A stretch of DNA of 30,694 nucleotides from a virus (Duplodnaviria; Caudoviricetes). Under the pieces are notes generated by a model. It saw nothing but the letters and a program-made list of their open reading frames with translations, was not told where the DNA came from and searched no databases. A program made the translations under genes and the position numbers. The stretch spans positions 1 to 30,694 of IMG/VR virus record IMGVR_UViG_3300011443_000043. One strand, written 5' to 3'. How positions within the stretch are numbered: the stretch's first letter is position 1; each line of letters opens with the position of its first letter. Positions 1 through 22,127 of the stretch are shown here, piece by piece.

Positions 1-94
1 GCCGTAGCCGTAGCCGTAGCCGTCGCCGGAGCCGTCGCCGTAGCCGTAGCCGTCGCCGTCGCCGTAGCCGTCGCCGTCGCCGTCGCCGGAGCCG
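1..94. repeat. Degenerate 6-bp tandem repeat (GCCGTA/GCCGTC/GCCGGA)
   Basis: Directly visible; encodes the Gly-X dipeptide repeat. Confidence 0.9.
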
Positions 95-141
95 TTCAAA
101 ATAAAATTCGGAAGAGCTCCGCGAATGAGTTTCGCTTCCAT
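1..141 (-). CDS. Gly-rich (G-Y/D/S)n repeat protein, runs off the window edge
   Basis: Own translation from ATG 141: MEAKLIRGALPNFILNGSGDGDGDGYGDGDGYGYGDGSGDGYGYGYG...; starts 8 nt after the upstream stop with GGAG upstream; not in the ORF track. Confidence 0.8.
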   Translation of the reverse strand, partial: MEAKLIRGALPNFILNGSGDGDGDGYGDGDGYGYGDGSGDGYGYGYG

Positions 142-1057: not shown

Positions 1058-1228
1058 TCAAGCGGCTTTCTTTTCCAGGTCATCAAGGCGATCAAGCATC
1101 AGCTTTTTGGCTGCCGGGGCTTTCTTCGCGATGTGCTCACGTTCCATGTAAGCCTCGAACCGTCGCGCGTCGTCGCCGTCAAGTTCGAGAATGACAATGG
1201 TTTTGCTGTTCTGAGATTTGTTTTTCAT
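1058..1228 (-). CDS. Small Cro-position DNA-binding protein (56 aa, ribbon-helix-helix-like)
   Basis: Divergent from the repressor; first ATG downstream of the leftward promoter; beta-strand TIVILEL followed by two predicted helices. Confidence 0.6.
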   Translation of the reverse strand: MKNKSQNSKTIVILELDGDDARRFEAYMEREHIAKKAPAAKKLMLDRLDDLEKKAA

Positions 1229-1260
1229 TAACGTTGGGTCAAATTTCCAATCCGACGCAG

Positions 1261-1289
1261 AAGGTACGCCCATTGTTTTTTATTGTCAA
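1261..1289 (-). promoter_or_regulatory. Leftward early (lytic) sigma70-type promoter
   Basis: Minus strand TTGACA (1289-1284), 17 nt, TACCTT (1266-1261). Confidence 0.7.
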
Positions 1290-1311
1290 GTAATATTTTC
1301 TATGGTACGTT
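1283..1311 (+). promoter_or_regulatory. Rightward (repressor/lysogenic) sigma70-type promoter
   Basis: TTGTCA (1283-1288), 17 nt, TACGTT (1306-1311) with extended -10 TG. Confidence 0.6.
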
Positions 1312-1364
1312 TCCCACTCGACGCGCTGCCTGTAGTAGAAGGTTCACTGCACATAGGAAATGCC

Positions 1365-1790
1365 GTGCAAGGAACTAACCAAGGCTTGAAGGAAACTCTT
1401 CCCGACTACGTGAGGCGCATCCGCCAGGAGCATCGGCTTTCTCTGCTCGATGTCGAGGGGCAGAGCAGGCGGGCGGGCTGGAAGATTGCCGGTAGTTATG
1501 TTTCGAAGATTGAAAACAAAGTGGCGCGAAATCCGAGTATCGACAAGCTGATCGGGCTCGCATTCGGTCTGGGCGTCCCCCTCGAAGAAGTGCTCAGTAT
1601 CGCATCAGGAAAACCACTGCAAGCCCCGGAGGCGCAGGAGATCCGGCTGGTCGTTATGTTTCGCGAGCTGCCCCCGGATCGCAGGGATGACGTTATGAAC
1701 CATGTGCGCATGCTTCACAAGCAATACGCCGTCAAGCCGACTGAGGTAAAAAATATCGACGCGAAAAAGAAACGACCCCGCGCCGCCTAA
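1365..1790 (+). CDS. CI-like repressor, XRE-family HTH (no S24 peptidase domain)
   Basis: YVRRIRQEHRLSLLDV...SYVSKIEN...NPSIDKLIGLAFGLGVPL XRE signature; GTG 1365 preceded by AGGA. Confidence 0.85.
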   Translation: MQGTNQGLKETLPDYVRRIRQEHRLSLLDVEGQSRRAGWKIAGSYVSKIENKVARNPSIDKLIGLAFGLGVPLEEVLSIASGKPLQAPEAQEIRLVVMFRELPPDRRDDVMNHVRMLHKQYAVKPTEVKNIDAKKKRPRAA

Positions 1791-1826: not shown

Positions 1827-2153
1827 ATGCCCGGATTCTTCTCGTTTCACAAACTCGTCAGCACTTCCATCATTAAAGCAACCTACATCATCGGGCTCGT
1901 GCTAATGACTCTATGGGGAATCGGCGCGATCGGCCTTGGTATTGCTGCGCTGGCTCAGCCTGACAACTTAGATTTGAAGGCGATAGTGGTTGGTCAACCC
2001 GCCGGCGTCATAGTGTTGGGCGCGGTCGTTATCGTATTTGGGAACCTGCTCTGGCGCTTGCTCTGTGAGGGATGGATTCTGCTTTTCAGCATTCATGAAC
2101 TGCTCGCGAGGATTGCACATTCAGATCGGACCGGTCTGACTTCCGACTTTTGA
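1827..2153 (+). CDS. DUF4282-like membrane protein
   Basis: FFSFHKLVSTSIIKATY...two TM segments...WRLLCEGWILLFSIHE; AAGGA RBS. Confidence 0.75.
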   Translation: MPGFFSFHKLVSTSIIKATYIIGLVLMTLWGIGAIGLGIAALAQPDNLDLKAIVVGQPAGVIVLGAVVIVFGNLLWRLLCEGWILLFSIHELLARIAHSDRTGLTSDF

Positions 2154-2154
2154 T

Positions 2155-2574
2155 ATGCCCAGCAGAGATAAATCTGGTTCTATTGTCGCCGCCGCGTTAT
2201 TGCTCGCGGTCATTCTGGGATGCAAGAGCCCTTCGAGAGTTCAGCTTCCACCCTCACAACTTAATTCTGAGCAGCACTTTGCAATCATGAAGGCGCTTAA
2301 AGAAAAGGGATACCCCGAACCTAATCTGGAAGTCTCTGACACTGGCTTTCTAGTCGCGACGTTCACACTGAGTGGACCGCCGACCAGGCAATCGCTCCGG
2401 ACCTATGCGGAGGAGGCTTTGCTGATAATCCGGAACACAATGCACCCACATCAGGTTGTGAAAAGCTACCGGGTCACGCTGAACGGACCATCGCCGGGTC
2501 CGGGATTGATTCGCCGATACGGCGTTGCCAGATATATCGAAGGCTACCAAGTGACATGGGAGCCCGCTGACTAA
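2155..2574 (+). CDS. Lipoprotein in the lysogeny operon
   Basis: Hydrophobic leader ending in ILG-C lipobox. Confidence 0.7.
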   Translation: MPSRDKSGSIVAAALLLAVILGCKSPSRVQLPPSQLNSEQHFAIMKALKEKGYPEPNLEVSDTGFLVATFTLSGPPTRQSLRTYAEEALLIIRNTMHPHQVVKSYRVTLNGPSPGPGLIRRYGVARYIEGYQVTWEPAD

Positions 2575-2582
2575 AAACCTTA

Positions 2583-3836
2583 ATGCCCCGCGGAACTAAA
2601 GACGGCTCAATCACCAAACGACGCGTCACTCGCCTCATCAAAGGCAAGCCGCGCCAGGGCGACATCTGGGAAGTCCGCAAGCGCTACACCAAAGCCAACG
2701 GTCTCCAGGGCCAGAAGCGCCGCGTTGCTTACTCAGCCACCCAGGCAACGAAGACCATGCGCGCCCTCGAGGATGAGATCGCCGACGAGCTCGCCGGCGC
2801 CGGCCGTGACGACTCAGCCCGCACCTTCGCCGACCTCTCAAAACATTTTGAGACCAACTATCTGAAGCCGCCCGTCTGGCACGACGGCCGCAAAGTCGAG
2901 GGCATGCGCTCGTATAAAAAGCGCCGCAACACTCTGAAGTTTCTGCGCGCCGCTTTCGACGATCGCCTGCTGCGCGATATCGGTTGGGCCGAGCTCGCCC
3001 AGTTCAAGAGCCAGCGCCTGCGCTCGTTCGTGGTGATCAAACACCGCAGACCTCGCGGCACTGAGGTCAGTACCGGGAGCGATAGCGACCGGGTCCGCGG
3101 TGCCGAATACGACCTGCGCAGCCGCACTCGCTCCATGGCTTCAGTCCAGGAGCCGCTGAAGCTGGCCCGGCGCATGTTCAACGTGGCCGTGCGGCTCGGG
3201 TGGATTGCTGAGAACCCATTCAGCCGCGGCGACTCGCTGATTGTCGTCGCGCACGAACGCAAGCGGATGCGGATCCTCTCACGCATTGAGGAAGGGAAGC
3301 TGCTGTCATTTTGCACCGGCCGCCGTGGCTATCTCTCCGATGCGATCACTTGCGCGATTGACACGGCCGCTCGCCAGAATGAACAGCTCACCCTCGCCGT
3401 CGACGATGTTTACATCGAGAAGAGATTCATGCGCATCCGGGCCCGCAACGCGAAGATTGAGGAAGAGCGCACCGTCCCGATCACCGCCCGCCTGGCCCTC
3501 GTGCTCGAGAGACTGATCGAGCAGTCAGTCAAAGGCCGGCTCTTTCCCCCGGGTACCGCAACCCGCATCAAGCGAAACTTTCAATCTGTCTGCCGTCTCG
3601 CCGGCATTGAGAACTTCCGCTGGCACGACCTCCGCCACACTGGTACGATGCGGATGCTCGATGCAATCAAGGACCCCGCCAAAGTGATGAAGATCACCGG
3701 CCACAAACAGTGGACCACCTTCATGGTCTACGTGAACGTCGACGAAGAGATAGCCCGCGAACTCGCCGGCGCCATGGACGCCGCCCGGGCGATTACGGAA
3801 ACGATCATCGAAACGAACGAAGAGAGGGTGAACTAG
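2583..3836 (+). CDS. int: Tyrosine recombinase / phage integrase
   Basis: Catalytic residues intact: DTAARQNE (R), NAK (K), WHDLRH (HxxR), TGH (H), MVYVN (Y). Confidence 0.95.
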   Translation: MPRGTKDGSITKRRVTRLIKGKPRQGDIWEVRKRYTKANGLQGQKRRVAYSATQATKTMRALEDEIADELAGAGRDDSARTFADLSKHFETNYLKPPVWHDGRKVEGMRSYKKRRNTLKFLRAAFDDRLLRDIGWAELAQFKSQRLRSFVVIKHRRPRGTEVSTGSDSDRVRGAEYDLRSRTRSMASVQEPLKLARRMFNVAVRLGWIAENPFSRGDSLIVVAHERKRMRILSRIEEGKLLSFCTGRRGYLSDAITCAIDTAARQNEQLTLAVDDVYIEKRFMRIRARNAKIEEERTVPITARLALVLERLIEQSVKGRLFPPGTATRIKRNFQSVCRLAGIENFRWHDLRHTGTMRMLDAIKDPAKVMKITGHKQWTTFMVYVNVDEEIARELAGAMDAARAITETIIETNEERVN

Positions 3837-4052
3837 GTGAGGTTCTTTAATTATTATCGAAGCCCAGACTTCAGCCTCTTCTGGCTGGTATTTCTTCCAG
3901 AATTGGTAGTGTGCGCCATGGTGGATAACGCTATATCGATCCGCGTTTGGACCGTATCAGGCGTGAAAGGATTTCTGCGTGAGTTCGCTCTGGACGCGCC
4001 CTGCACAACCACAGACACACCCATCGAAGTGAGAGAGGAAACGGTGAATTGA
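3837..4052 (+). CDS. Small cassette ORF 1 (hydrophobic N-half; ends in integrase-like tail)
   Basis: GTG directly after the int TAG; ends LDAPCTTTDTPIEVREETVN. Confidence 0.55.
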   Translation: MRFFNYYRSPDFSLFWLVFLPELVVCAMVDNAISIRVWTVSGVKGFLREFALDAPCTTTDTPIEVREETVN

Positions 4053-4273
4053 TGTTCCACCAAGCTGATGACGTGTTCACCATACAGGAAAGTGGCAAGG
4101 AGTTAGTGCGTGTCACGCCGGACGGTGAGATTCAGATCGCTGATGGTCTAACTCAGGATGAATTGAGAGCCGTAATTCGGCACCTGGCCTGGGCGATAGC
4201 AAAGCCCGCCCTCGACGCCGCCCACGCTCTACCGGAAACACCGATCGAAGTGAGAGAGGAAACGGTGAACTGA
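4052..4273 (+). CDS. Small cassette ORF 2
   Basis: TGATG coupling with ORF 1; ends LDAAHALPETPIEVREETVN. Confidence 0.7.
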   Translation: MFHQADDVFTIQESGKELVRVTPDGEIQIADGLTQDELRAVIRHLAWAIAKPALDAAHALPETPIEVREETVN

Positions 4274-4275
4274 TT

Positions 4276-4491
4276 ATGGACGAAGCTAATGACTTGACTC
4301 GACTCAGCGCAGAAATCACAAAGCTGTCAGAGTGGAAGGCCGACGCTCTAGATGTCATCAGGAAGTATCAGGCGATTGCGGATCTTGCATGTCCTAAACT
4401 CGACGTCGGCTGTAGCAGAGTTGAAGCCTTGCAAAACTTTGTGATAGCTCACAAGAACTGTGACCGAGTGAGAGAGGAAATGGTGAATTGA
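4276..4491 (+). CDS. Small cassette ORF 3
   Basis: ATG 2 nt after the previous stop; helical content, 3 Cys; ends VREEMVN. Confidence 0.7.
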   Translation: MDEANDLTRLSAEITKLSEWKADALDVIRKYQAIADLACPKLDVGCSRVEALQNFVIAHKNCDRVREEMVN

Positions 4492-4583
4492 TGTCAGCCA
4501 CACTCTTAGTGACCCTTGGATTTAGTGGTCTTTACGACCAGGACGGAAACCTGCTCGAAGGGCCGCCGTTGATAGACCCTTGA
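4491..4583 (+). CDS. 30-aa ORF after the last repeat
   Basis: TGATG coupling; MSATLLVTLGFSGLYDQDGNLLEGPPLIDP; below the ORF-track cutoff. Confidence 0.4.
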   Translation: MSATLLVTLGFSGLYDQDGNLLEGPPLIDP

Positions 4584-4668
4584 CTACGCCGCGAGAGTTG
4601 CCACATATTGCGCTGAAAGCAGAGCAAGACGGCTTTCAGGTCGTTCGAGTGGGTGACTGGGACTGGAC

Positions 4669-4704
4669 GAGCCTCCAATCCGGCCCTCCGTCAGGCCCTC
4701 CGTC
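4669..4704 (+). promoter_or_regulatory. Putative integrase arm-type binding sites (12-bp period)
   Basis: GAGCCTCCAATC / CGGCCCTCCGTC / AGGCCCTCCGTC in tandem; another GGCCCTCCGT at 4909-4918 on the other side of the core. Confidence 0.6.
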
Positions 4705-4817
4705 TGACGTTACTAGCCCCGAATAGCACCGCAGCCCGACTCGCGGTTAAGATGGCAGAGCAGGGAATTACAACTCCAGACACAGCCAGCCCCCGCGTGA
4801 CTCAGGTAATGGCCAAA

Positions 4818-4862
4818 CTCCTAAGCGGAAGGTCGCGCGTTGGAATCGCGCCGGGGGCACCA
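4818..4862 (+). other. attP core: 3' half of tRNA-Arg(CCU)
   Basis: CTCCTAA anticodon loop, GCGGA, AGGTC, GCGCG-TTGGAAT-CGCGC T arm, CGGGGGC-ACCA; 5' anticodon-stem strand missing; downstream of integrase and flanked by arm-like repeats. Confidence 0.85.
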
Positions 4863-4881
4863 TTTTCCTGAGCAAAACTGC

Positions 4882-4914
4882 AAAATAGAGAAGGGCCGCG
4901 CGAATTGCGGCCCT
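4882..4914 (-). terminator. Intrinsic terminator for the tail/late transcript
   Basis: Stem AGGGCCGC/GCGGCCCT followed on the minus strand by TCTCTATTTT. Confidence 0.6.
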
Positions 4915-4950
4915 CCGTTTGGTCCTCACACACTTCAAAAGTGATGGTTT

Positions 4951-6324
4951 TTAGTAGATTGTGCGCCAGGCGTAGGCGTCGCCGGCGTCTTTCGCGCAGA
5001 CCTCGACGGTGTCCTTCACACCGGCTCCGCCGTTCACCACCCAGAAAGTTCCGCGGTTGCTCGAGTTGCAGGTCGGCTTGGCGGTGGCAGTGTTGAGACG
5101 CAGGCCGCCGTTTACCTCGAGCTCGCGGCCGGGGCTGGTGGTGCCCACCCCGACGAGGCCCGCATAGTCGATCGTCATCCGGGCGTCAGCTACTGCCGCA
5201 CTCGCTGAACTCGCGGCGCCATTCATCGCGAAGTACATCTTGCCGCGGCCGTTTGCGTCCTGGCCTTCGAAGATGATCGCGCCCTTTTGATAGCCGGCGC
5301 CGGAGTCGGTGAATCCAAAGTTGATGCCAACCCAGTTGCCGGCCGTGCCGATCAAGGCCGAAGTAAGCGTGGCCGCAAAATAGTTCCCAGCCGCGTCGTG
5401 AATGTTCAACTTGTGACCAGGGCTGGTGGTGCCGATGCCGACTTTGCCGGCGAACGTGTTATTGCCCGAGTTACTGAAGGCGTTCGCCGCGTTGATTAGC
5501 GGCACGTTGGCAGAGAGACGCGCGTCGGCTACTGTGCCGCTGCCGAGGTTGGAAGCATTCAGCGCGGTGAGGTTTATTCCGCTCGCCGCCGGCAGCGTGG
5601 CCGGGAAGCGGCCGTCGGGCAGAGTGCCGCTGGTGATGTTGGTGGCGTTGGTCGCGTCGGTCGCGCATGAGGCGGCGCTGTCGGAAAGGTTTGCGCAGGT
5701 CGGGCGTGCTTTGCTGATGAGGCCCTGGGCGCTTACGGCCGTCAGAAAGTTGTTTGAAGTTCCGGTGTCAGGCTGGACGGTGGTCGAGTCCGCGTTCGGA
5801 ATGTTGATCGAGCGTGTCGTCGCGGTCGCGATATTTGAGACGTCGAACTTTGCGGCCCTGGTCGTGTCCGATGGATCCACCAGGTTGAAGTTGTTTCCTG
5901 CCTGGAATTTCTGCAGGAACGCGCCGAACGTGTTTGCCTGGTCGGTGTAGACCGTGGCCGCGTGCTGCCTGGACTTTCCCAGGGCTCCGGACCAGCTCAG
6001 AGTGAAACTGTGATTGTTGGCTGCGCTCGCGATCGTCAGCAGGACGTTGGTGTCGTTCGTGCGGCTGAAAGTTTGGGTCGCGCCGATCATCCCGTTCAGC
6101 GATGAAATGCCGCTGCCTGGCACACCGCCGCCGCCGCCGGTACCGATGCGCGCCTGGCGGCCGTTGATGACTACGCTGCCCGGAGGAAACACCAGCTCAG
6201 TGATGCCGTTGAAAGTTGGCGTGCCGTCGGACTCTGAGACGCGCAGGGTCTGGGCCTGGAGCGAAGTGCAAAGGGCGAAGAGCAAAGCGTTCGTGACGAG
6301 CGCGTACCTAAACAAGCATCTCAT
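4951..6324 (-). CDS. Tail-fibre/adhesin-like protein with N-terminal signal peptide
   Basis: KVGIGTTSP and LVGVGTTSP repeats, NASNLGSGTV-type repeats, last gene of the tail operon; ATG 6324 overlaps the upstream gene end. Confidence 0.75.
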   Translation of the reverse strand: MRCLFRYALVTNALLFALCTSLQAQTLRVSESDGTPTFNGITELVFPPGSVVINGRQARIGTGGGGGVPGSGISSLNGMIGATQTFSRTNDTNVLLTIASAANNHSFTLSWSGALGKSRQHAATVYTDQANTFGAFLQKFQAGNNFNLVDPSDTTRAAKFDVSNIATATTRSINIPNADSTTVQPDTGTSNNFLTAVSAQGLISKARPTCANLSDSAASCATDATNATNITSGTLPDGRFPATLPAASGINLTALNASNLGSGTVADARLSANVPLINAANAFSNSGNNTFAGKVGIGTTSPGHKLNIHDAAGNYFAATLTSALIGTAGNWVGINFGFTDSGAGYQKGAIIFEGQDANGRGKMYFAMNGAASSASAAVADARMTIDYAGLVGVGTTSPGRELEVNGGLRLNTATAKPTCNSSNRGTFWVVNGGAGVKDTVEVCAKDAGDAYAWRTIY

Positions 6325-7531
6325 ATGTATCTTTCGGCTCGGGGTTGAATTCTCCGGTCGATCCGCCCGCGCCGCTCCCTTCATTGGCAAATGTCACTTC
6401 AAGAATGTTGCTGTCCGGAGTGAAGGCGCCGCCGCTCGAGTGCGCGACTGCCACGTAAATGGTTTGCGCCAGGCGCACCGGAACGGAGTCGAGCTGGTAA
6501 GTGAAGCCCGGCCAGACCACGTCGGCGTCGTCAGTCGTTACCAGGTCCCCGAAACTTAGGCCCGACGTTGCTGTTGCCCCGGACGCGGTGGCCGTTTCCA
6601 CTTCCGTGTCACCGATCCAGAGGTCTGCGGTCGCGCCTCCGGTGGCCACCACCAGGCGAATGCGCATGTTGGCGATCGCGTGACTCGACCCGCCATTGAG
6701 CGCGACGTTGCCGCTCGCGTCAAAGGTCAGCTCGAATCGATGCGTGCCGTCTTCGATCCGGAAGGCGACGCACTGGGCCGGGCTCGGATTGTCGCTGGTG
6801 ATTACGAATGGCGGGATGGCCAGCTCCAGCGTGAAGCCACCGCTGAACGCGCTGCCGGGCCAGCTTGTTTTTTCGAAGTAGGTCGCCGCGTCGCTGAGAG
6901 TGGTGTCAATGCGCCAGCCGCCGGCGTTTGCTTCCGTCAGTCCGGATCCGGTTTTCGTGAAGCCGTTTGTCTCCGGGTCGTTTCCGGTGTAGGTGAAGTC
7001 AGGGACCATCGCGCCGGCGCGCAGGATGTCGATGTATTTCGGGACTTCGTTGGGCCCGTACTCAAAGATTTGTTCTGAGGGGTCGTCGAGGTCGCCGCCC
7101 ATGGTCAGTGATTCAGCGATGCGCACGCGCCGGCGGGTTACCAGTCCACTGAACTCGGTGACCGCGACTGTCGCGCTGTCGGCCGTCGCATCGTTGAACA
7201 GGCCGATCACCGGCGCCGTTGTCTCGCGTTGAAACGTCAGCTCGTGTTCGATCGCGTCGGTTAATTCTCTGACTCCGCGCGTGCCGTCCGGAGCGATCGA
7301 CACGGTCGAGAGAATCGGGTTTCGATCTTCCTGGGGGTTGTAGTCAAAGGATCCGGACTCGCCCGGGCGATAGAGACCGACCAGGCGCGCGGCCGCGGGC
7401 GGCTCGCCTTTGGCACGCCGCCAGACTTCCACCGTGGCGGGCTGGACCTCGCGGGTTGGATAGTATTGCCGGCGCGCCATGGGGCGACAGACAATGTTCT
7501 TTCCTCCGGATGCTTTGCAGATTAGGTTCAT
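6308..7531 (-). CDS. Minor tail protein, beta-rich (possible lectin-like domain)
   Basis: 407-aa ORF in the tail operon; Thr/Gly/Asp-rich beta-type composition. Confidence 0.65.
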   Translation of the reverse strand: MNLICKASGGKNIVCRPMARRQYYPTREVQPATVEVWRRAKGEPPAAARLVGLYRPGESGSFDYNPQEDRNPILSTVSIAPDGTRGVRELTDAIEHELTFQRETTAPVIGLFNDATADSATVAVTEFSGLVTRRRVRIAESLTMGGDLDDPSEQIFEYGPNEVPKYIDILRAGAMVPDFTYTGNDPETNGFTKTGSGLTEANAGGWRIDTTLSDAATYFEKTSWPGSAFSGGFTLELAIPPFVITSDNPSPAQCVAFRIEDGTHRFELTFDASGNVALNGGSSHAIANMRIRLVVATGGATADLWIGDTEVETATASGATATSGLSFGDLVTTDDADVVWPGFTYQLDSVPVRLAQTIYVAVAHSSGGAFTPDSNILEVTFANEGSGAGGSTGEFNPEPKDTYEMLV

Positions 7532-15761: not shown

Positions 15762-16081
15762 TTGATGTCTTTGAAAAGACGGAAATAGATTTCGCGGCAG
15801 TTCACTGCGCCGAGGTCCGCAAGATGTTCCTCGGTGATCTCGAGCGGCCCGCCATCACCATTGGTGATGTCCGGAATTGAAGTGACCACCAGGGCGAGCG
15901 ACTTTGCCATGTTCCAGTCGGGTACTTCCTCGAGCTCCGTGACCTGGCGCATCAGCGCCGGCGTCACCCGGTATTTGACGGCAAAGTCTTCCGTCTTTCG
16001 TTCGCAGTTCTCGCCCTCTTCAAAGGTCAATGGCACCGTGATAGTGCGGGTGGTGAACTGGCTTACATTTACTCTCGGCAT
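15689..16081 (-). CDS. Tail assembly chaperone (gpG-like)
   Basis: GGAG RBS at ATG 16081; upstream of tape measure; INPT followed by an S/T-rich tail typical of frameshifting chaperones. Confidence 0.75.
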   Translation of the reverse strand: MPRVNVSQFTTRTITVPLTFEEGENCERKTEDFAVKYRVTPALMRQVTELEEVPDWNMAKSLALVVTSIPDITNGDGGPLEITEEHLADLGAVNCREIYFRLFKDINPTQAPATSTDSRSTSATEPAAQS

Positions 16082-17345: not shown

Positions 17346-17467
17346 TGGTTTGCCTTTTCTTTCGAGCTGATGTTTACTTCCCGCGCCGCGGTCGCTGCTA
17401 CCTGCAAAGTATGGCGACCGTGACGGTTGGCGGCGTGACTTTCGGGCCACGTCGCCGCCTCTCACTT

Positions 17468-17782
17468 CTAAGTCGCTGTTGGCGGTGTGTGAATCATTAT
17501 TCGGTCCAGCTTTTCCTCAACTCGATCAAATCGCCGCGTGTTTTCGGCTTTGAAATCTTCCCAAATCTTTTTGTCTCGATTTGGATCAAGATGCAGCGCC
17601 GTGTTCGATTCATGCTTATGGAGCTCCTGCTCGGCCTCTCGTAATCGCTCCGCAAATAGCTTGTTCTGTTCTGTCAGCGCGTTAATCCGAAAGTTGTTTA
17701 CCGCCCACGCCGCAATCACCCCAGCAGCAATGACTCCGAGCGTAACCAAAACACCGATGTTGTTCGCAAGCCATGCTCCCAT
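17468..17782 (-). CDS. N-terminal TM plus coiled-coil protein (holin-like)
   Basis: IGVLVTLGVIAAGVIAAWAV TM; C-terminal FDRVEEKLDRI. Confidence 0.65.
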   Translation of the reverse strand: MGAWLANNIGVLVTLGVIAAGVIAAWAVNNFRINALTEQNKLFAERLREAEQELHKHESNTALHLDPNRDKKIWEDFKAENTRRFDRVEEKLDRIMIHTPPTAT

Positions 17783-21699: not shown

Positions 21700-22127
21700 T
21701 TGCCTTCCAGTTCCGCCTCAATCGTCTCGAGGATTTCGGCTTTCTTCAGGTGCTCAGTTACGCCGATGTTGCGTTCGTGCGCGTAGGCCAGCAGCTCGGC
21801 CTTCGTCATTTTGTGCAGGTCCTGGGGCGACCCGGTCGCTACCGCTCCCGATACTGAAGCCGAGCCGGCGATGACCGGATCGCGGTTGATGGGCTCAGGA
21901 TCGCGCGTCTGTACCTGCTGCCCCCCACCAGGAGTCTCCGACGCTGGCAGCGACGAAGAGACTTCGACTGCGCGACCCTGATTGATGAACCGAAAAGCTG
22001 CGGCCGGATCGACGTCGCATTCCTGCACGGGATAGTCCGGACCGTAGTCACAGCCGTTATAGGAAGTGTTGCGGGTGAACCGCAGCCGCTTCGGACCTTT
22101 CTTTTTGTTGACGAATTCGACTGGCAT
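21696..22127 (-). CDS. Capsid-adjacent protein with C-terminal helix-extension-helix (Rho-N/LEM-like) domain
   Basis: LHKMTKAELLAYAHERNI...KKAEILETI; gpFI position. Confidence 0.65.
   Translation of the reverse strand: MPVEFVNKKKGPKRLRFTRNTSYNGCDYGPDYPVQECDVDPAAAFRFINQGRAVEVSSSLPASETPGGGQQVQTRDPEPINRDPVIAGSASVSGAVATGSPQDLHKMTKAELLAYAHERNIGVTEHLKKAEILETIEAELEGK

Follow-up and report, generated by a model that had tools for sequence, protein, structure and literature searches.

Three small genes in a row end in homologues of an integrase 3′ end beside the attP site of a temperate phage

How do small orphan genes come to share the 3′ end of the gene that precedes them? The question is raised by a locus in the virus record IMGVR_UViG_3300011443_000043, which we analyzed over its whole 30,694-bp stretch (the window; a single record, partial at both ends, such that replication and recombination genes may be missing). 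Directly downstream of a tyrosine integrase gene (int) lie three short units that each end, in frame, in a homologue of the int 3′ end, here termed a tail (Table 1). The stops of int and the units end at 3836, 4052, 4273, and 4491, giving units of 216, 221, and 218 bp, a spacing that had been reported in a first-pass annotation made from the letters alone and that we reproduced from the sequence and its open reading frame (ORF) list. The same annotation held that each unit terminates in the integrase C-terminus, and this we also recovered, with homology of 66, 66, and ~28 nt in units 1 to 3, respectively, only ~7 codons and the stop being involved in unit 3. The array is a three-unit, integrase-anchored variant of a phage gene junction that has been described before, and the three-unit stack is seen in this one genome only. 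As to its origin, we lean, without strong conviction, toward a stack built by general recombination at the shared int 3′ end and not by Int itself.

The repeat exceeded chance expectations in several respects. Aligned with its own downstream DNA, the int tail scored 54, while 60 shuffles gave scores of 30 or less. A 65-nt repeat family was located at 3770, 3986, and 4207 (65% and 71% identity to the int copy) and a 28-nt family at 4028, 4249, and 4467 (89% and 96% identity to the unit-1 copy). A degenerate pattern for the junction had five matches in the window, four of which were at array stops, and none of 100 shuffles reached five. At the four junctions the start codon followed the preceding stop at an offset of 0, overlapped it, lay 2 nt away, and overlapped it again, with the distal tail part carrying Shine-Dalgarno-like bases in addition to the coupled starts. 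A convergent gene-junction motif, that is, a Shine-Dalgarno sequence with overlapping stop and start, would account for these latter properties. However, two copies share homology over 66 nt that reaches into integrase-specific codons, a length that effectively refutes convergence, and the only 4 of 176 window ORFs of at least 45 amino acids that end in [VI][NH] (Val or Ile, then Asn or His) all lie in the array. An assembly artefact is opposed by the divergence of the copies and by a 13.9-kb contig of the likely source run that spans the locus (2400–5300) with 0 differences and 0 joints, the contig not being independent data. We find convergence or artefact scarcely credible. The repeats are also not a CRISPR, in line with the first-pass view, in that the spacers would be 150–190 nt long with open frames, and an Rfam scan of 3700–5100 returned no CRISPR family.

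Table 1. Positions of the integrase, the array, the attP region, and the co-oriented upstream genes in the window
Feature	Coordinates	Strand	Evidence or remark
Tyrosine integrase, 417 amino acids, lambda-type three-domain	2583..3836	+	PF00589 E 2e-17; PHROG 1 E 6e-40; model and fold search
int 3′ end, 21 codons + stop, template of repeat	3771..3836	+	Alignment, structure model
Unit 1, 216 bp	3837..4052	+	71 open codons from GTG, or 44 amino acids from ATG 3918; coding signal weak in 5′ half
Tail copy 1, 66 nt	3987..4052	+	Identity 41/66 with int tail and 50/66 with copy 2
Unit 2, 221 bp stop to stop, 73-amino-acid orphan ORF	4052..4273	+	Start overlaps unit-1 stop
Tail copy 2, 66 nt, best-preserved	4208..4273	+	45/66 identical to int tail
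Unit 3, 218 bp stop to stop, 71-amino-acid orphan ORF	4276..4491	+	
Tail copy 3, short, ~7 codons + stop	4467..4491	+	27/28 identical to copy 1 over 4467–4494
Fourth coupled ORF, 30 amino acids, without tail	4491..4583	+	
Putative sigma-70-like promoter, 9/12 consensus match	4580..4609	+	Faces attP
Two exact 10-nt direct repeats, P arm	4682..4703	+	Likely Int arm-type sites; role inferred from position
attP core, last 45 nt of tRNA-Arg(CCT), from anticodon loop	4818..4862	+	Identical to tRNA-Arg 3′ ends in the family of G001/G282
Terminator-like hairpin (4890–4916) overlapping third arm-type repeat (4909–4918)	4890..4918	.	
Repressor-like helix-turn-helix gene	1218–1790	+	Co-oriented, upstream of int
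DUF4282 gene	1827–2153	+	Co-oriented, upstream of int
139-amino-acid ORF	2155–2574	+	Co-oriented, upstream of int

Comparisons with related integrases traced the ancestry of the tails. Close homologues of this Int (P0002–P0016) are 51–78% identical to it and have tails of the same kind. The tail of unit 2 scored 87 against the P0007 integrase and 60 against its own int. Of 13 other close integrases, 10 gave it a higher score than its own int did, and its mean score to 14 close integrase tails was 66, as high as that of any real integrase tail. Copies 1 and 2 were identical at 31 of 33 distal and 19 of 33 proximal positions (Fisher p 0.001), the proximal part of copy 1 being decayed, and within the last 10 codons both differences between them were synonymous. 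Judged by the unit-2 scores and this two-tier identity, the unit tails derive from a different integrase allele than the present int, and their last ~30 nt have been recently copied or are constrained.

In the bodies upstream of the tails, GC content was 47%, 53%, and 49%, versus 62% for int, and the GC content of third codon positions (GC3) was 0.54–0.57, versus 0.78. No similarity between bodies emerged from DNA or protein alignments (12 tests, all p ≥ 0.1), nor did profiles of close or of all integrase homologues detect similarity between bodies and int (p ≥ 0.11), which upholds the earlier description of the bodies as mutually unrelated and more AT-rich than int. These tests bear directly on a tandem-duplication origin. 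The first-pass annotation had named diverged tandem duplicates of one another as contrary to its own proposal; a wider form has one mini-gene, or the final ~72 int codons, duplicated long ago, with bodies that diverged and ends that were homogenized. Duplication would explain the equal lengths directly; the conserved HxxR motif is 216 nt upstream of the int stop, and units 2 and 3 have 16 of 30 nt in common after the stop. Nevertheless, with no body-to-body or body-to-int similarity and a GC3 unlike that of int, duplication is largely refuted and in our judgment very improbable.

Repeated protein and DNA searches did not find homologues of the bodies. Besides itself, one body had five matches, all long repeat proteins (two inspected), which were rejected; the two candidates of another search were not homologues, and atlas matches were below 0.9 or unusable. 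Among short proteins with the int end, the sole match was a 190-amino-acid integrase fragment, in searches that did not use a tail-only profile and may miss diverged tails. The chance of the frames being open was p ~0.07, 0.07, and 0.03 for units 1, 2, and 3, and public gene calls comprise units 2 and 3 and the 30-amino-acid ORF from the same starts as ours, while unit 1 is called from ATG 3918 only. A sense-versus-antisense amino-acid test, which is weak for foreign genes, placed the units at the 1.5th, 2.2nd, and 28th percentiles among 137 real gene windows. Because of the public call and because the antisense frame scores better over the first 27 codons of unit 1, the coupled GTG start of this unit is doubtful. 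The translational coupling proposed earlier would fit starts that abut or overlap every stop and is in question for unit 1. We also observed that the antisense frame of unit 1 (3837–3956, minus strand; 40 codons after a stop) reads like a fragment of a soluble protein; it had no match in Pfam, in the loci examined, or in 45 genomes.

The integrase from which the repeat stems has a predicted fold that best matches Tn1549 and lambda Int in a fold search. Its catalytic motifs lie upstream of the repeat region, which in the model corresponds to the end of the last predicted helix (388–403) and a low-confidence tail (405–417) predicted to be disordered, so crossovers in the repeat would, according to the model, spare catalysis. 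Within the close group, P0007–P0009 are 73–76% identical to this Int at residues 176–230 and 50–58% at residues 231–396, where P0002–P0006 are 77–92% identical. Such comparisons suggest that the close integrases are mosaics, P0007–P0009 and P0016 combining an N-terminal part of one subgroup with a C-terminal part of another. Separately, a host-type repeat was present in frame inside int (window 3060–3096) in a variable, low-confidence loop (residues 160–171); another copy lies in the head module (21829–21857). It had 46–66 copies in 5 of 10 family genomes tested, and P0006 may have the same in-frame insertion.

Int and all three units end in Val-Asn. The broader [VI][NH] end was found in 76 of 107 integrase homologues (VH or IH in 11 of the 107) and in 1 of 256 ORFs taken from 400 kb of the family genome G627. 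Among 70 int-like ORFs from the loci, 3 of which were low-scoring and may not be integrases, 44 had this end, using seven Val/Ile codons, both Asn codons, and both His codons, and only 9 of the 44 had a coupled start. Given the mixed codons and the scarcity of coupled starts, we read [VI][NH] as a protein-level motif of the integrase family. The distance from the catalytic-Tyr motif to the C-terminus was 31–36 amino acids in 57 of 72 integrases, over a linker that is variable in sequence and nearly fixed in length. These patterns make the [VI][NH] end a likely candidate for a degron or docking end.

The tails may therefore have been kept as a functional peptide, with the units carrying the C-terminal recognition peptide of Int and, as products co-translated with Int, acting as protease decoys, modulators, or Int competitors. 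We consider this unlikely as the explanation; it can be added to a recombinational origin. In its favor are the frequency of [VI][NH] and its mixed codons, the near-constant distance from the catalytic Tyr, the predicted disorder, the retention of the last two residues in all three units, and the synonymous late differences between copies 1 and 2. Published accounts offer parallels: Lon reads C-termini of the form x-L/I-L/I/V-H (PMC11986505), LarA and HspQ are small proteins with C-terminal degrons that regulate Lon (PMC10665427), and BPs Int bears a C-terminal tag for degradation (PMC3694055), a conserved end outside the catalytic core as here. However, the Lon motif requires a terminal His, which neither Int nor the units have, and Asn, the end typical of this clade, is not in the top three terminal residues for Lon in the relevant section of that study (PMC11986505). 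The present locus further differs from BPs (PMC3694055) in that attP is not inside the repressor gene and the degron is a candidate. Moreover, there are too few sites for selection to be recognized, DNA homogenization explains the identity equally well, and copy 1 is decayed in its proximal part. Decoy action would also not be the sole outcome, given that LarA, as described, activates Lon with no notable competition with a Lon substrate (PMC10665427).

Whether Int itself moves the units can be judged from the attachment region. The array lies between int and attP, as first proposed, and at E ≤ 1e-8 the attP core was matched in 101 of 401 family genomes, often with 100% identity; the whole tRNA-Arg(CCT) was present in all 30 attP-core loci fetched. 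Genome tallies include genomes marked unpublished (G131, G200, G298, G359, and G554), and no claim depends on these alone. On either side of the core are 10-nt repeats in three exact copies (at 4682, 4694, and 4909; 0.15 copies expected). With its tyrosine integrase, tRNA-3′-half core, and flanking arm-type repeats, the carrier is a lambda-type tRNA-targeting temperate phage. The tail repeat, by comparison, was no closer to the attP core and the arm sequences than shuffled sequences were, unlike what Int-mediated tandem accretion at att would leave; its longest exact inverted arms were 3–6 nt, and the junctions folded no better than shuffles (z 0.0–1.2), with no stable hairpin. Because the repeat is unlike core and arm sites, has no inverted arm longer than 6 nt, and does not fold, Int is probably not the catalyst. 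The first-pass proposal of recombination at the int 3′ end, by Int or by homology, is therefore retained as the best mechanism in its homologous form, and its Int-mediated form is disfavored.

General recombination with a coding repeat at the end of each unit accounts for the frame, the coupling, and the two-tier identity. In such a scheme, the 5′ part of a foreign gene would first have been joined once, illegitimately, to an int 3′ end and so have acquired a stop codon together with a Shine-Dalgarno-like sequence and a coupled start. Recombination between two tails, by host RecA or a phage annealing protein, would then loop out a circle of ~218 bp consisting of body and tail, or unequal pairing with a co-infecting phage or prophage could take its place. 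If the circle then entered the int 3′ end by a single crossover, its body would come to lie directly behind the int stop, with a tail re-formed at its end; Int would stay intact because the repeat is outside the catalytic core. Repeated rounds would generate the stack and homogenize the distal ~30 nt, crossovers or conversion there being expected to produce the two-tier identity of copies 1 and 2. The present int is probably itself a replacement for an earlier allele, and this would explain why the unit tails are closer to each other than to int. Expression of the units, as accessory genes, would come from the repressor-int operon, and they would remain together on one side of the prophage.

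Several points weigh against such a history. General recombination alone leaves unexplained both the near-equal lengths and why copies 1 and 2 have a left boundary in common. The tails are 62–68% identical to the present int, and identity in this range is low for RecA. Gain, loss, or exchange of units was not observed, with one genome at hand, and contigs of four runs, which drop rare variants, contained no tail-to-tail joints. The 5′ half of unit 1 may be non-coding. Finally, searches with each body for donors lacking the tail, which the first-pass annotation had put forward as a check, found no donor gene. As for enzymes, no general recombinase was annotated among the 35 window ORFs scanned in this partial contig.

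The unit lengths fall within 5.5 nt of each other, for which rough probabilities of 0.0007–0.003 were obtained under three assumed lognormal size distributions. They stay unexplained, and one guess is that a lower limit on circle size combined with pressure for small genes. A dedicated capture system that measures sequence or length, through Int acting at a secondary site or a nuclease near the int end, would produce fixed-size cassettes, and would also accommodate the start of copies 1 and 2 at the same codon and an arm-site spacing across attP of 215 bp here and 215–217 bp in the related loci L334 and L336; the resemblance of this spacing to the unit length may be a coincidence. We nonetheless regard such a system as improbable. 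The repeat is unlike core or arm sites and has no palindrome, the left boundary of copy 3 differs from that of the others, Int reaches 24.6 bits against an integron-integrase cut-off of 265, and 0 of 65 other integrases have tail copies. No nuclease gene adjoins the array, the endonuclease VII-like gene of the head module being 17 kb away. Equally improbable in our view is that the int 3′ end constitutes a gene-capture dock, where ~218-bp circles enter at the int stop and the tagged products tune Int stability or activity as a decoy bank while new small genes are sampled. A decoy bank of this kind would be comparable to lambda CIII.

Relatives with tail copies were sought at the level of downstream DNA for integrases up to ~40% identity, while the close P0002–P0016 were compared as proteins. 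Integrase scans reached identities of at best 39% in viral contigs and, among the matches listed, 36% in genome contigs and 33% in metagenome contigs, and a single-protein viral scan for a close integrase had no match. Whole-genome searches of 401 class genomes, 401 family genomes, and genera of 185 and 45 genomes contained no integrase above ~40% over its full length, and exact and degenerate tail patterns had 0 matches in viral contigs. No tail copies were present behind 65 more distant integrases for which 400 nt or more of downstream sequence was available; two loci beat all 60 shuffles, neither through tail copies, and ~10 further weak matches of 20–30 nt among very distant integrases were left uninspected. 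Candidates that we rejected comprised a short att-like repeat family (L267), an out-of-frame tail-like match (L271), a tRNA (L121), a weak tail-like match that was inspected (L010), and a palindromic repeat in four copies (L070). The last of these is ~35 nt long and located at 5655–6550, with its four copies within coding frames, two of them in the 3′ end of an integrase gene.

Seven related phages were found by their tail gene. Their integrases are distant (24–32% identical in the five with identity given), and tail copies were absent in all six that could be tested, L345 being without downstream DNA. In L334 and L336, repeats of 215–217 bp lie beyond the int terminator; on visual inspection we took them for arm sites flanking attP. 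In L334, we also noted an 85–110-nt promoter-and-start region duplicated 1.6 kb apart (15784–15895 and 17382–17494), which brackets small genes and has one copy in front of int. Small tail-less genes were present between int and att in L081 and L271, from which it follows that the int-att spot takes accessory genes in this family.

The first-pass annotation knew of no described system with this layout, and here it must be corrected. Gene 68 of mycobacteriophage Island3 is a one-gene version (PMC3029335): it is an orphan of 85 residues, its final 18 residues and 60 bp are a copy of the 3′ end of gene 67, which lies upstream, and it is absent from the close relative Brujita. For Island3, general recombination at boundary sequences was proposed, and conserved boundary sequences were described as rarely visible (PMC3029335). 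As in Island3, 3′ ends are shared in frame here (over 66 nt in units 1 and 2 and ~28 nt in unit 3) and the bodies are unrelated to the upstream gene. In contrast to the single Island3 unit, there are three here, of near-equal length, anchored on an integrase beside attP, with tails from an allele other than that of the upstream gene; presence and absence between relatives is a feature of Island3, while one genome is known here. A multi-unit array on an integrase 3′ end was not found in the searched literature, which misses most subscription papers.

Other systems share parts of this arrangement. The two-step circle model for the displacement of rhs tips (PMC2935791) would fit by analogy, yet in rhs, as described there, a conserved piece precedes the variable tip and displaced tips are silent, while here the conserved piece ends the unit and starts are kept. 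In T4-type phages, promoter(early) stem-loop elements (PeSLs) are short repeats that bound small orphan genes shuffled by recombination, with mini-circles reported (PMC2839356, PMC4122927). PeSLs are non-coding promoter-terminator motifs of lytic phages, whereas here a coding repeat supplies the stop in a temperate phage, and the repeats contain neither a promoter-like site nor a stable hairpin. Integrons comprise a tyrosine recombinase beside a row of short, lower-GC ORFs parted by repeats, to which the present array bears a likeness. It is not an integron, as the first-pass annotation had recognized: TIGR02249 scored 24.6 bits, far below its cut-off, so that Int is not IntI, palindromic attC sites are absent, the phage has its own tRNA attP with arm-type repeats, and the array is co-oriented and downstream of int.

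The genes at 1218–2574, int, and the units likely form one operon, and the minus strand encodes terminase, portal, capsid, tail, and tape-measure genes. The promoter-like site at 4580–4609 is followed by an 8-bp hairpin (within 4580–4670) and after integration would point from the prophage into host DNA. The 4890–4916 hairpin would be parted from the int operon and located behind the restored tRNA, a displacement through which int mRNA might differ in stability between phage and prophage. The host is likely within Blastocatellia/Pyrinomonadaceae, based on a genome titled uncultured Blastocatellia in the tRNA-matching family and three integrase homologues named from Pyrinomonadaceae. Small shares of the runs X2–X6 were given no weight as an indication of habitat. 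Two further observations concern other parts of the window. The Cro-like (1058–1273) and repressor-like (1218–1790) ORFs both have an Ala-Ala C-terminus, which we take to resemble ClpXP-type tags, and a Gly-Asp/Gly-Tyr repeat ORF (1–141, minus strand) adjoins DUF6948 and runs off the contig end.

The locus bears on how phages acquire their many small orphan genes, with three junctions in a row at one anchor. The allele mismatch of the tails likely records an integrase swap, and the locus is a compact substrate for asking whether coding repeats of 28–66 nt mediate the gain and loss of entire genes. In an understudied phylum, the [VI][NH] C-terminus is a candidate for a degron or a docking end. 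Were the tail peptide put to use by the units, gene capture would be linked with lysogeny control.

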